From the NCBI GenBank assembly GCA_034226945.1, contig CP120458.1, positions 434,001 through 498,000 on the forward strand: a DNA stretch of 64,000 bases. Direction: 5' to 3'. The notes below the pieces were generated by a model that was given only the letters and a program-made list of their open reading frames with translations, made no database searches and had not been told where the DNA came from. The DNA is from Picochlorum sp. SENEW3. Its lineage: Eukaryota. Position 1 is the stretch's first letter. Each line of letters opens with the position of its first letter. A program made the translations under genes and the position numbers. This document shows positions 3,571-63,979 of the stretch, piece by piece.

Positions 3571-4861
3571 ATGGGAAGGGCAGAAAAGTTGTTCTATCGG
3601 ACTTGTTTACGAACGCTTGATGGGTTTAAAAGCTTGCGAATACCTTTCACTGGAGTATATGGCACTTGTCTAGTGAATTGGAGTTTAGATAGTCAGGAAT
3701 CAGTGCGGCATTGGTGTAAGAGTGGAGTGCAGGGTTTGAATAGTCTGCAAGGTGGGTTTGATCAGCTCCCGATGTTTCTTTCGAACAGGGTGATTGTCCA
3801 CGCAATGGGTGATATGATAATAATGCTCGAGTGATGCGCAGATGGGATGGATTGCGTGAGTAGAGCTCAACGCCAGTTGCAGGTACTGCAGAGCGTGGAG
3901 GAGGAAACTCACAAGGTATGCACCACGGTCAATGCTAGAAATGAACATCATGTATTCGTCATGAAATGGATTGGGTACCTATTTTTTAATGCTTGTATAG
4001 GCAATCAATGAATGGGGGGAAGCGGTGGATGCGGTAGTGATGTATAGAAGACAAAATCATCTGGATGCATGTGACTCGGAAGGCATCATACGTGGGAATC
4101 TGATCGGCATGGAGGTCATCTCGAGACAAATCAACGATATCATGGGTAATAGCATCAATGCAAGTGTTTCGGACGGCATGGAGCAATGTATTGATGCTGC
4201 TGCATGTACCATTGAGAAGTTTCTGGAGCCAAGGAATGATCAGGTTGAGGAAAGGATAGAGTCGCTTATCCGCTCTTTCTATGGGCGTCTTGGATATAAA
4301 TACGAGCCTTTTGAATGGCTTTACGAAGGGTTGAGCCCAATACTCCTAACCCATGTGATGCAAACAAGAAAGGGATCACCAGCAGCTCTTGCATTGGCAT
4401 TGAGTGCAATAGGTTCAAAGGTGGGGATCCATCTTCTACCAATGCCATTAGATGATAGTGATTTAGGTCGCCGAGGAGCAATAGACGAATCACTCGAGCC
4501 TTTGCTCGAAACATTACCTCCTGAAGTTGCGAGTAGGCTGAATAGTGCTGGGTGTGGTCCAAATCCTTTGACCTGGATTTTGAGATTAGATGCCGGGCTT
4601 GCAGAGAATGCTGCCTTGTATGTGGACTGCAAGGAAGGAATCTTGTTGACAAAGTCAGATATGATGAAGAGGTTCCCATCCATGGGACAGCTATCTGCTG
4701 CAGACTGGAGAGAGCAAAGTCTTTTGAGATCGTGGAATGGATTGATCCAACTCGCCATTCAGGCTCATCAACGACGAGGAGAAAGCGATTGGGTGGCGCA
4801 CTGGATTTACGTAAAGCTGGCTATGGACCCGCTCGCGCCCGAGTGGGGCATGGTACTGTGA
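3571..4861 (+). CDS. SirB1/Transglut_core2-like domain protein, 3 exons
   Basis: LLTHVMQTRKGSPAALALALSAIG resembles the Transglut_core2 motif. Introns at about 3752-3841 and 3916-4001 keep the frame from ATG 3571. Confidence 0.6.
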
Positions 4862-15830: not shown

Positions 15831-16573
15831 ATGCCTATCAAAGGAGACAAAGCGCCAGCGAAGAAGGTAGGGGCTCACAACCTCACAGTCTTTCGGTTCA
15901 TGTCTTTGTTGTGCGACCGTGGGACATGAGACCTTGACTCTGTATTTTCTCTTCATCTATACATGAATAACTATATTGTGTATCATTTGAGCGCACCGTT
16001 TGCCCGAGAAAGGGGCTGGTGTGGATCGACAGTTACTGACCGTTTGATCGTCGTTGTGCAGACGGCCAAGAAGGTGGCTGAGAAGAGAGGTGCTCGCAAG
16101 AAGACCTCTTCAAAGGTATGGATGGTTTTGATATTGTATCATTGCATCCCATTGCGGGCGTGGCTATGCAGCATGCCTGATGCCATGTTGTTGTTAGCAG
16201 CCCAGTGGACACGTACATGTTGAACCTGAATAATCATGTCCGTTCTCTGATTGCTCCATTAACGTCATATAATGGTGTTTTCTTGTTCTTGCTGCAGTCG
16301 GAGACGTACAAGATTTATATCTACAAGGTGCTGAAACAGGTTCACCCAGATACTGGTATTTCCTCCAAGGCCATGTCCATCATGAACTCCTTCATCAATG
16401 ATATTTTCGACAAAATTGCCAACGAAACCACCAACTTGGCTCGCTACAACAAGAAGCCAACTGTTACGTCGCGCGAGATCCAAACTGCTGTCCGTCTTAT
16501 TCTCCCAGGAGAGCTCTCAAAGCACGCCGTCTCTGAGGGAACAAAGGCTGTGACCAAGTTTACCACCGGCTAA
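15831..16573 (+). CDS. H2B: Histone H2B with two introns
   Basis: [16 protein letters not shown]...[29 protein letters not shown]...AVTKFTTG. Confidence 0.96.
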
Positions 16574-16754
16574 GCCACATTGTCATCAGACAATGGATAA
16601 TGATGGTTTCATCACATGACTTTCGCATACGCTGACTGAACTCATTGATGGCAGTGAACCATACATGTTGTGCTCCATTGCAAAATCGTGGTGCTTTCTG
16701 TGTGTTGAATGTAAATTCATGTATCTGTCATCGATTGCTGTAACATTACATACA

Positions 16755-17504
16755 CTAATATCTATATTTGGTTGAATAATCCTTTGGAGAGATGACCAGA
16801 CCCCTACCCTTCCTGGCACCTCGATACACTGTCTCAACAATGTCTATAAATTCCTGTTTGTCAGTCATGGCCCAGTTGATTTTGTTATTGTTTCCCGTAC
16901 CAAGATCAATCATGATATGCTGCAGAGTCATATAATTAAGTTAGTAGTAGATGATCGACGATTGTGCTGTCCATGCCAACACGTGTCATTGCACACAGCA
17001 TGCTTGCCCTCCTTCAATACAAAACAATGGAGAAGGCAGCAATGACACTCAAGTTGCATGGACAGACGTTGCTGTAGCAAAGTGACTGCCTTGGATGTGA
17101 TGGGCATAGGACACAGATCCAAGGTAATTTCTTTGCATCGACATCGAGGATAGTCAACGCACCTTGTTACGAAAAAAAAACATGACTGTGCAAGGGTCAT
17201 ACAGTTCATACATGGCATTGAAATCTGGCACCTCTGTTATATCTACGAGGTATATAACAGCAAAGTTTTTTATTTTATCTGCCACAGAGGCCAATGTCTC
17301 ATCCATTTGCATGCAGGTGTCATCCCAGTCATGCCCAAATCGGACAACGACAACTCTGGACTCTTCCTGCAACGAAATACAAGAACCTACTGGATCAGTC
17401 ATGGCATAGAGAAACGAATTACTCATACAGTTCCAAGTACATACAGTCAAAATGGCCTGATCCACGGCAAAACCAGAATGAAGATGAGGCAGGAGGAAGC
17501 TCAT
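16755..17504 (-). CDS. DIM1: U5 snRNP thioredoxin-like protein Dim1/TXNL4A, 3 exons
   Basis: MSFLLPHLHSGFAVDQAIL..RFGHDWD..YELYDPCTVMFFFRNK|HIMIDLGTGNNNKINWA...SPKDYSTKYRY*. Confidence 0.97.
16960..17138 (-). ncRNA. Candidate intronic box H/ACA snoRNA in DIM1 intron 2
   Basis: Hairpin (GCAAAG/CUUUGC plus CCUUGGAU/AUCCAAGG around a 6x6 pocket), H box ACAGCA (17070-17075), second hairpin with two 10-bp stems, then ACA (16963-16965), all upstream of the branch point ACUAAC. Confidence 0.6.
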
Positions 17505-17553
17505 GTTTTATGATTTCATTGGCATTGCCCTCGACAGAAACAGATGTTATCTA

Positions 17554-20313
17554 TTACAAATTTAATTTTTTTCTTACTGCTGTATGGACGCACGCTGCTA
17601 CAGAATCCCATTGTCCATCGGATTCGAATTGGGACTTGTATCCAGAAATGATGTGTGCCATCTGGGAGGGCAAAGGGTCCTTTGGTGTATGGCTCCATGT
17701 TGCAAAGCATTCGCATATACCTGCAAAGTGGGATTTGGCGGCGAGAGGATTGGCATTGATGACGCTGCACAAGCCTTCCTGAGCATCCTGCTTTTCCTCT
17801 CCATCTCTCAATCCTCGGAGTGCAGCACACCACCCACCCATGAAAGCTGATGCGTGGGGGGCAATTGTTTCCGGTGTGGAATTGCCAATTTGCCCCAAGC
17901 ATACTGCTGCGTTTTCAACCAGGCTCCTCGGAAGCACGCCGACAGGGGCTGTGAGGATTGGCAGCAGTCGTTCAAGTGATAATATGGCAAATTGAGCAAC
18001 ATCTTGAGAGGAACATTTCTTTGCAACAACTCCTAATGCCCAGACAGCATTATTGCAGGCGTCAATAGTATCCCCTGTTATATTTTCTGGCTTTATGCAT
18101 TCTAGAATAGCTTCCATGAGAGGAGAGAGAAAGGGCAAGAGTTCTAGCATGCAGGCATCTGCCAAGTCACCAACGAGTCCAAAGGCACTCTGGCGTAAAG
18201 CAGGACTTGAGTGCACGGAGACTTTGACCAATAGCGATCCCAAGGAACTGCTAGAAAACAAAGGGGCAATGGATGGGCCCAAACCTTGAATAATGCCGCT
18301 CAAGGTGTCTAGTGTATGCTCTATGAATTTGACCTGTTCCTCTGGGTCGACTGGTGTGGCATCTCCAGCGTAATAATATCCTTCAGCCAACGACATGCAC
18401 GAGTGGAATACATTTTGGGCATATGGAAGAAGTGATGATCCAGCTTCAGACCCAACTGTCCCAATACAGTCAAGTAATGGCAGAATCTCAGGGTCTTCAG
18501 CAGACGCACGAGATGCCTTGAATGTATCCAGTTTACTAAAGAGCGAGGGCAACAGAATATCCGCATATTCTTGCCTCTGTATTATCTCACAGCTTGATAA
18601 TGCTATGATACTGATTGAATCGTACACTGCTCTCAAAGATCCCTTCCCATAATGCTGGAGTCCAAATGACAAGGCACTGAATATTTCTGGAATGTATGGC
18701 TTGATCAATACTGGATCTTCCTCAACCAGAGTTGCCAAGCTACCACAGGCAGCTATTTGTACTATTTTATTGCGGTCTTTCACGACTCTATCTATGATAC
18801 CATGGGTTACTCTCTCTAATAACGTTCCATCACCCTCTGATGTGTTGCTATACACGTGTCTGGAATACCTTGTCAACGTCCAGCAAGAGATGCAGCGAAT
18901 CATCGGCCGCTGATCGACAAGACCAGGCAAGACAGCTGATATTATCGCATGCGTATGTTCCTTCAAACCAGTATGGCACCCATTGCTTACAGCCCCAAGT
19001 GTCAATATGGCTGCTTCCCTCGCTTTCCAATTCCCTTGCTGCAGATTACTCTCCACAACAGGAAGCAGTGTCGGTAGAATATCATCCCCTAGGAGCCCCG
19101 AAAGCATGTCAAGACCGGCAGCAGAGCTTTTCCTGAGGTTCCATTCAACATCTGCCTCCTGATCCTTCTCCATGTCACCATCCTTGCTGCTCGGTGCATG
19201 TGACACGGATGCATGAAGATGAGGCCGTAATTCGGAAGCACTCTCCCTCTTCTCTTCCTCGTATGCTTCTGCTTCAGCAACTTGCTCATCGAACTCATCA
19301 AACTCCATATTCTTCACCAATAGCGGAATGAGTCGAGGCACAAATGGTTTCAGCAATTCCCCATCAAAACCTGCTTCAGGAAACACCGACCAGAATTCAG
19401 ACGCTTCTATAGCAACATCATGATGTGGATCTTGCATAGCATCGATCATGTACTGAATTAAAAGCGACAGCTCCCCCTCAAGTTGAGATGGCGCCAACTC
19501 GGACAAATGAATCAATCCGATGCACACCACTCGTCTCACAGCAGCCTCTGGATGATGCGCCAACGAGAACACCCCCGCCTTGTACGCAGAAATCAACTCA
19601 TCCATCTTTGAAGATTGATTGAACAAAGCATAATTCAGTATAGTGATGGAGGCCACTTGAATGTGTACGACAGCATTCCCCATCTGTGCCAGAACCAATG
19701 GCAACAGACAATCATTCGCACTCGTAGAATCTCCCACATCCTCCTCCATCCTCCCAGGAGAATCCTCCCATGTCTTTTGAATAGCATTCAATGCACCATC
19801 CATGGCACATTCATCGCCAGAATTCAAATACATCTGTAAATCACGCAGCAGAGAAGGCCACTTTGAAAACCCCAAGCAAGACGCCAGTGTTGCCACACAT
19901 GTTGCAGCAGTATGCCTCAATGTCCGATCCGCACATCGCAGCCCATGCACTAGAATCTGTTTCACCGTCTCAACAACATCAGGGACAGCATTCGACACAA
20001 TAATATGCCTCAGACTATTCTTCAGAAACAACCCTGCACTCTGCCTTACAGCCCCAGCAAGCCCATCCCCTGACACCAATATATATGCCAAATAACTCGG
20101 GTAATCTCGGTATGAGCTACACCATTCCTCCAAATGGGATAATATCTACACATGCATCAAAAACCATCTTCCGTTAAAGCACCATCCAACTAGTGCCAGT
20201 CTGTAAAATCCATCCCGCACCTGGTGCTGATTGGCCCCTGGACTTTGAAATTCACTCAGCAACCCAGCAACCCTCTGAACACACCCATCATCTGGTTTCC
20301 AACCATCATCCAT
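17554..20313 (-). CDS. TNPO1: Transportin-1 (karyopherin beta-2)
   Basis: VRQSAGLFLKN, EASEFWS, acidic loop, WNLRKSSAAGLDMLS, WKAREAAILTLGAVS. One 5' intron. Confidence 0.93.
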
Positions 20314-63877: not shown

Positions 63878-63979
63878 TATCCCGCATGGGGTTCGAACCC
63901 ACGACCTTCGCTTGTATCCACCGCCACACGAGGTACTTGCGGTCCGGAGAGCGACGCTCTTCCACTGAGCTAGCGGGAC
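63878..63979 (-). tRNA. tRNA-Arg(CCG) with 30-nt canonical intron (63914-63943)
   Basis: Acceptor GUCCCGC/GCGGGAU, D-arm GCUC/GAGC with A20, anticodon stem UCGCU/AGCGA with CU-CCG-G, T-loop UUCGAAC, downstream T5 terminator. Confidence 0.92.

Follow-up and report, generated by a model that had tools for sequence, protein, structure and literature searches.

The second intron of the DIM1 gene in the 64-kb window (the whole stretch of DNA that was analysed, 64,000 nucleotides) very probably encodes a box H/ACA snoRNA, the first hairpin of which would direct pseudouridylation of the large-subunit (LSU) rRNA uridine that follows the sequence GACUG. The element lies inside the intron on the sense strand of DIM1, which is the minus strand of the window, and its host gene encodes a U5 snRNP protein of the spliceosome.

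The window is eukaryotic and gene-dense, with long reading frames that give Pfam matches to V-ATPase subunit A, an SF3b145-like protein, DNA polymerase epsilon, Hsp90 and SHMT. The host gene is built as follows:

17504-16755, minus strand: DIM1/Dib1 gene, three exons
17445..17504, minus strand: DIM1 exon 1, 20 codons from the ATG
17444-17367, minus strand: DIM1 intron 1
17163..17366, minus strand: DIM1 exon 2, 68 codons, Pfam PF02966 with E 2.2e-31 over profile positions 18-85
16920..17162, minus strand: DIM1 intron 2, 243 nt, with 5' GTGCGT, TACTAAC at 16946-16940 and 3' CAG
16755..16919, minus strand: coding part of DIM1 exon 3 with the stop codon at 16757-16755, Pfam PF02966 with E 3.7e-22 over profile positions 86-133 (16919-16773 tested)

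The spliced product is 142 amino acids long and belongs to the DIM1/Dib1 (TXNL4A) family in the Pfam PF02966 search. The matches of exons 2 and 3 to this family bear out the initial annotation, which had placed the element in DIM1 intron 2. Read from the sequence alone, a histone H2B-like gene with one intron (~16118-16298) occupies window positions ~16000-16574 on the plus strand, convergent with DIM1 and with ~180 nt between the two 3' ends. The A/T-rich spacer between DIM1 and a neighbouring HEAT-repeat gene carries a U6atac-like Rfam match (17503-17572, plus strand) that is at chance level (13.6 bits, gathering score 33, E 0.93); a GlsR14-like Rfam match just upstream of DIM1 is also at chance level (E 6.6). 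Elsewhere in the window we observed a tRNA gene at 63878-63979 on the minus strand (Rfam RF00005, 52.2 bits), whose length of 102 nt against a 71-position model indicates that it probably has an intron inside, and an open reading frame of 468 amino acids from an ATG at 829-2235 on the plus strand, with no Pfam match at E 0.001.

Read in the direction of transcription, the predicted RNA has the following parts:

16960..17138, minus strand: predicted mature H/ACA snoRNA, ~177-179 nt, from its fold and boxes
17131..17136, minus strand: lower stem of hairpin 1, 5' arm GCAAAG
17125..17130, minus strand: pocket of hairpin 1, 5' guide strand AAAUUA, of which AAUUA would pair with rRNA UAAUU 3' of the target
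17089..17124, minus strand: upper stem and apical loop of hairpin 1, CCUUGGA/UCCAAGG extended by UGUG/CACA
17083..17088, minus strand: pocket of hairpin 1, 3' guide strand CAGUCA, which would pair with rRNA (U)GACUG 5' of the target U
17077..17082, minus strand: lower stem of hairpin 1, 3' arm CUUUGC
17070..17075, minus strand: box H, ACAGCA, which fits ANANNA, in a single-stranded hinge
16966..17065, minus strand: hairpin 2, with a perfect 10-bp closing stem (I3), a perfect second 10-bp stem (I4) and a branched top
16963..16965, minus strand: box ACA, one unpaired C after the closing stem of hairpin 2, with AUC next

We infer the ends of the RNA from the base of hairpin 1 on the 5' side and from the ACA plus 3 nt on the 3' side. 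The initial annotation had described a hairpin-H(ACAGCA)-hairpin-ACA architecture with pocket strands AAAUUA and CAGUCA and 13 nt between the upper stem and box H, and each of these elements is found on the minus strand from 17138 to 16960. A single U separates the lower stem of hairpin 1 from ACAGCA, and the start of box H is separated from the last base of the upper stem by exactly 13 nt, a distance of 14 that falls within the range of 14-16. The 179-nt stretch has a minimum free energy (MFE) of -67.6 kcal/mol compared with a mean of -50.2 +/- 4.0 for 200 dinucleotide shuffles (z -4.34), none of which folds as stably, and both the MFE and the centroid structures of the window RNA have the hairpin-hinge-hairpin-tail form. 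In the predicted fold of the free RNA, the two pocket strands of hairpin 1 can pair weakly with each other.

In an H/ACA RNA, the 3' strand of the pocket base-pairs with the rRNA that lies 5' of the target, and the 5' strand with the rRNA that lies 3' of an unpaired U-N. Applied to the strands of hairpin 1, this rule gives the target 5'-(U)GACUG-U-N-UAAUU-3'. The initial annotation had given GACUGUYUAAUU as a pseudouridylated region of LSU domain IV, and published human, yeast and fungal-primer sequences confirm that the motif is real. A human 28S primer reads ...TCCGACTGTTTAATTAAAAC... and contains it (excerpt of PMC11331408), and a pan-fungal LSU primer reads CTGACTGTCTAATTAAAACATAG (excerpt of bioRxiv 10.1101/310540). 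The corresponding yeast sequence is UC-Psi-GAC-Psi-G-U-C-UAAUU-m1A-AAAC and that of E. coli 1769-1788 is UGCAACUGUUUAUUAAAAAC, both from a table in which the yeast numbering runs 2 below the conventional one (Taoka 2018 supplementary table S9-2, PMC6182160). Human 3610-3629 reads UCCGAC-Psi3616-G-Psi3618-UUAAUUAAAAC (Taoka 2018 supplementary figure, tables S5 and S9-2, PMC6182160), and the RNase T1 fragment Psi-UUAAUUAAAACAAAG corresponds to human 3618-3633 (Taoka 2018 supplement, PMC6182160). Against these published yeast, human and fungal-primer sequences, which stand in for the host LSU, the proposed complementarity of the pocket to GACUG-UN-UAAUU holds: the predicted duplex comprises 5+5 bp with the human and 6+5 bp with the yeast and fungal LSU, human rRNA having a C rather than a U before GACUG and hence one base pair fewer. 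At 10-11 bp the guide duplex is short and A/U-rich on one side, and it is within the usual range.

The uridine selected in this prediction is the equivalent of human 28S Psi3618, Arabidopsis 25S U2126, E. coli U1777 and, in conventional numbering, yeast U2135, in the helix 65 region of domain IV. In human 28S rRNA, Psi3616 and Psi3618 are modified to 89% and 95%, respectively (Taoka 2018 main-text table, PMC6182160). Arabidopsis 25S U2126, as mapped by Sun et al. 2019, is assigned to the guide snoR87 and equated with human U3618, with no yeast equivalent (Streit and Schleiff 2021, excerpt of PMC8351944). The yeast row of the comparison has the U after GAC-Psi-G unmodified (Taoka 2018 table S9-2, PMC6182160), so modification at this site is not universal.

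The sequence of events that we propose follows general intronic snoRNA biology. Debranching of the spliced intron and exonucleolytic trimming would free the snoRNA, and during the trimming its two hairpins and its H and ACA boxes, bound by Cbf5/dyskerin-Nop10-Nhp2-Gar1, would protect it. The internal loop of hairpin 1 would then serve as the pseudouridylation pocket, with CAGUCA paired to (U)GACUG and AAUUA paired to UAAUU. At the top of the pocket, 14 nt from box H, two bases would stay unpaired, the U right after GACUG and its 3' neighbour, and Cbf5 would isomerise the U.

How readily such an arrangement arises by chance was gauged in the window with a descriptor that calls for a closed upper hairpin between AAUUA and CAGUC, for a lower stem, and for a box (ANANNA or ACA) that follows the upper stem at 13-15 nt. 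With lenient 4-bp stems, exactly one site on both strands of the 64-kb window fits this descriptor, namely the element itself. Among 300 dinucleotide shuffles, two contain such a site, a mean of 0.007 per shuffle. Decoy guides run on the real window, with minimum stem lengths of 6 and 5 bp, gave no site for 1000 permuted pairs, which draw on only 599 distinct possibilities, and one for 1000 random 5+5 pairs. A eukaryotic ribosome contains on the order of a hundred pseudouridines. Because there are so many of them, and because the target was chosen after the pocket had been seen, these controls alone are suggestive rather than conclusive.

The decisive evidence for the H/ACA reading is the conservation of hairpin 1, and this conclusion is supported by the comparison of DIM1 loci. 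Metagenome contigs scanned for matches to DIM1 exon 2 gave 80 loci, in which the intron positions were found by tblastn with the three exons. The intron after the codon for ...FFFRNK is absent in 70 of the 80 loci and confirmed in six: it measures 342 nt in L002, 382 nt in L003 and L004, which are identical, 396 nt in L029, and 2143 nt in both L025 and L032. The closest relative, L001, with 94% exon-2 identity, leaves the reading frame at the same point, and its contig ends before exon 3; the contig of L015 ends at exon 2, and L034 has a gap of -1. The initial annotation had pointed to the DIM1 introns of relatives as a place where an H/ACA snoRNA should be conserved. Hairpin 1 is indeed kept, in the same intron, in the four closest loci L001-L004 (90-94% exon-2 identity; three distinct sequences), which backs that reading.

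Together with the window, L001, L002 and L003 make up four distinct sequences. The parts of hairpin 1 come in the order GCA(A/G)AG, 0-3 extra bases, AAUUA, CC ... GG, CAGUCA, CUUUGC, one base and the hinge box. In all four sequences the blocks AAUUACC (7 nt) and GGCAGUCACUUUGC (14 nt, which includes the CAGUCA strand) are invariant, and the hinge box keeps its spacing of 13 nt. Five of the six pairs of the lower stem never vary, and the sixth goes from A-U to G-U in L001. The hinge box itself reads ACAGCA in the window, ACACCA in L002, AGAUCA in L003 and AUAUUC in L001, so that ANANNA is present in three of the four, the L001 box lacking the last A. The remainder of the introns differs in length and G+C and is alignable no better than unrelated sequence. 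The full-length candidates from L001, L002 and L003 fold into the hairpin-hinge-hairpin-tail form, with z-scores of -4.04, -7.55 and -3.93, respectively. Two of these introns have short repeats outside the snoRNA: that of L003 (1304-1686) has a 16-nt CATTCGTTCGTCCGTT-type tandem repeat unit near its 3' end, and that of L002 (514-856) has GTCTCTCT-type short tandem repeat units near its 5' end.

We built a covariance model, R1, of hairpin 1 and the hinge and ran it on the window and the 80 loci (361 kb). There are five significant matches, L003 and L004 at 86.2 bits, L002 at 86.1, L001 at 84.5 and the window at 64.1, all of them sequences from which R1 was built or identical to one of these. 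The next best match, at 16.7 bits and E 0.25, is L028:497-595 (plus strand), downstream of the DIM1 coding region, which keeps AAAUUAC on the 5' side and has a different 3' pocket strand; we rejected it as probably a chance match. A second candidate copy, L021:1721-1770 (plus strand), passes the lenient descriptor and was likewise set aside: it is not found by R1, has a z-score of -1.42 and shows no H/ACA fold. An intronless DIM1 gene (2441-2869) lies ~700 nt downstream of this candidate. GAAAUUACCUGGAU and GGCAGUCAC occur both in the candidate and in hairpin 1 of the window RNA, and the upper stem of the candidate has only ~4 weak pairs; the match may be due to chance, or the candidate may be a copy that has decayed.

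The upper stem of hairpin 1 has changed in a manner that keeps it paired. Plain MAFFT with RNAalifold misaligned the upper stem of the window, and we used a model-guided alignment instead, which leans towards the given structure. In this alignment four of the nine modelled pairs have changed on both sides, compared with 0-1 when the partner is slid, counts that are modest, since the distinct sequences number only four and the alignment was fitted to the structure. Of the 57 cells, 94.7% are paired, as against 40-49% with the partner slid by 1-3 columns. Column shuffles reach four double-changed pairs in 22 of 500 cases and the covariation score in 6 of 500, which makes the signal only moderately extreme. 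Single-stranded guide strands that are frozen, beside a helix that is free to change while it stays paired, form the pattern of a guide RNA and not of a mere hairpin.

These comparisons bear on whether the element is functionless, two intronic hairpins that simply arose by chance. Structure can occur in short introns, and both ACA and ANANNA are motifs of low information. Chance would nevertheless have to account for fold z-scores of -3.9 to -7.6 and for invariant blocks of 7 and 14 nt that recur, together with a covarying stem, in three other lineages amid introns otherwise unalignable; recent common descent of the whole intron, which might have preserved such blocks passively, is contradicted by the dissimilarity elsewhere in it. 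We regard this explanation as extremely improbable.

The same conservation could in principle mark a structured element of the intron with a regulatory role in DIM1 splicing or expression, for example a protein-binding or autoregulatory hairpin, in place of a stable guide RNA. Hairpin 1 is tied to one intron of one gene in all relatives that have it, which fits this reading, as do the variability of hairpin 2 and the ability of the free RNA to close the pocket. This reading leaves unexplained, however, why an ANANNA-type box stands at a fixed spacing of 13 nt, why a terminal hairpin and ACA occur in all four sequences, and why the two strands have a bipartite complementarity, in the correct geometry, to a known pseudouridylation site. 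Moreover, the DIM1 genes of more distant relatives do without the intron (70 of 80 loci), so DIM1 expression in general does not depend on the element. A regulatory element is, in our estimate, quite improbable, and we keep to the H/ACA reading.

Hairpin 2 was considered as a second guide and rejected. Its small internal loop, AACUUGA / GUGUUG, is partly self-paired, and it has no canonical pocket, the last base of its second stem lying 18 nt from the ACA, outside the usual 14-16. We found no conserved guide strands in hairpin 2 of the relatives, which share no sequence there. A hairpin that ends at an ACA is present in all four distinct sequences, although L003 has two alternative ACA sites and the choice between them is ambiguous; hairpin 2 of L003 also contains a second CAGUCAC heptamer. 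These features agree with the initial annotation, which had called hairpin 2 branched and had named no target for it. Most likely, hairpin 2 is a second protein-binding module that gives the RNA its ACA box and stability and guides no modification.

The window RNA has the fold, a box H, an ACA after hairpin 2, pocket complementarity and, for hairpin 1, a target distance of 14. By these sequence-level criteria it is a member of the H/ACA class, one that lies outside any curated Rfam family. Rfam reports no snoRNA family at gathering thresholds over the whole window or at permissive thresholds over 16700-17600, nor does it match the element of L001-L003, and none of the human SNORA models in Rfam is significant on the window element. 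The only H/ACA model that aligns at all to hairpin 1 and the hinge is SNORA15 (RF00398), at a chance-level 15.4 bits compared with a gathering score of 47 (E 6.7) and with different pocket sequences, so the window RNA is not a member of that family. A CAB box (UGAG) is absent from the terminal loops of the MFE structures in all four sequences, and nothing points to a Cajal-body RNA (scaRNA), despite the spliceosomal host gene.

A genuine H/ACA RNA could still owe its match to helix 65 to coincidence, with hairpin 1 acting on another rRNA site, on a spliceosomal snRNA or on an mRNA, or being an orphan. The shortness of the guide duplex leaves room for this, as does the use of published LSU sequences in the comparison rather than the rRNA and snRNAs of the host, and a host gene for a U5 snRNP protein invites the idea of an snRNA target. 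Yet decoy guides almost never match in the window, the matched U is a pseudouridine in both human and Arabidopsis, and both guide strands are invariant in the relatives, as expected for a universally conserved target; the lack of UGAG in the terminal loops also speaks against another substrate. We therefore consider another substrate improbable and retain the uridine after GACUG as the predicted target.

Three known guides invite comparison with the window RNA. Arabidopsis snoR87 has the same predicted target (excerpt of PMC8351944) and, with the human guide, would be a functional counterpart of the window RNA. The human H/ACA guide or guides of 28S Psi3618 act on the same rRNA nucleotide that is predicted here; a literature search for their name returned nothing relevant. 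Yeast snR3, according to excerpted literature, is an H/ACA RNA that guides 25S Psi2129, Psi2133 and Psi2264, in an rRNA that also carries m1A2142. Like the window RNA, it has two hairpins and addresses the same strand of helix 65, but it selects other uridines, the U predicted here lying 2 nt downstream of Psi2133 and 6 nt downstream of Psi2129, and we detected no sequence similarity between the two RNAs. The excerpted main text of 'The fungal snoRNAome' (PMC5824354) mentions no guide for the position 2 nt after the 25S-3315 target of snR3.

These parallels allow the conjecture, which we hold to be doubtful, that the window RNA, plant snoR87 and the human Psi3618 guide descend from one ancient snoRNA, and that the pseudouridine is ancestral to eukaryotes and was lost in budding yeast. 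If that were true, this line of descent would have in the window RNA its first member from a microbial lineage with snoRNAs outside Rfam, and the snoRNA would have been kept in a gene for a spliceosome protein while its second hairpin lost its guide function or never had one. More directly, the predicted target suggests that a pseudouridine equivalent to human 28S Psi3618 is present beyond animals and plants. The element would be an ordinary, previously uncatalogued guide of a well-known class, and it leaves the knowledge of how H/ACA RNAs work unchanged. What it adds is a well-supported, unannotated snoRNA gene with a specific and testable pseudouridine prediction, and a small new family, comprising the window and three metagenomic lineages, whose covariance model R1 can be used to annotate relatives.
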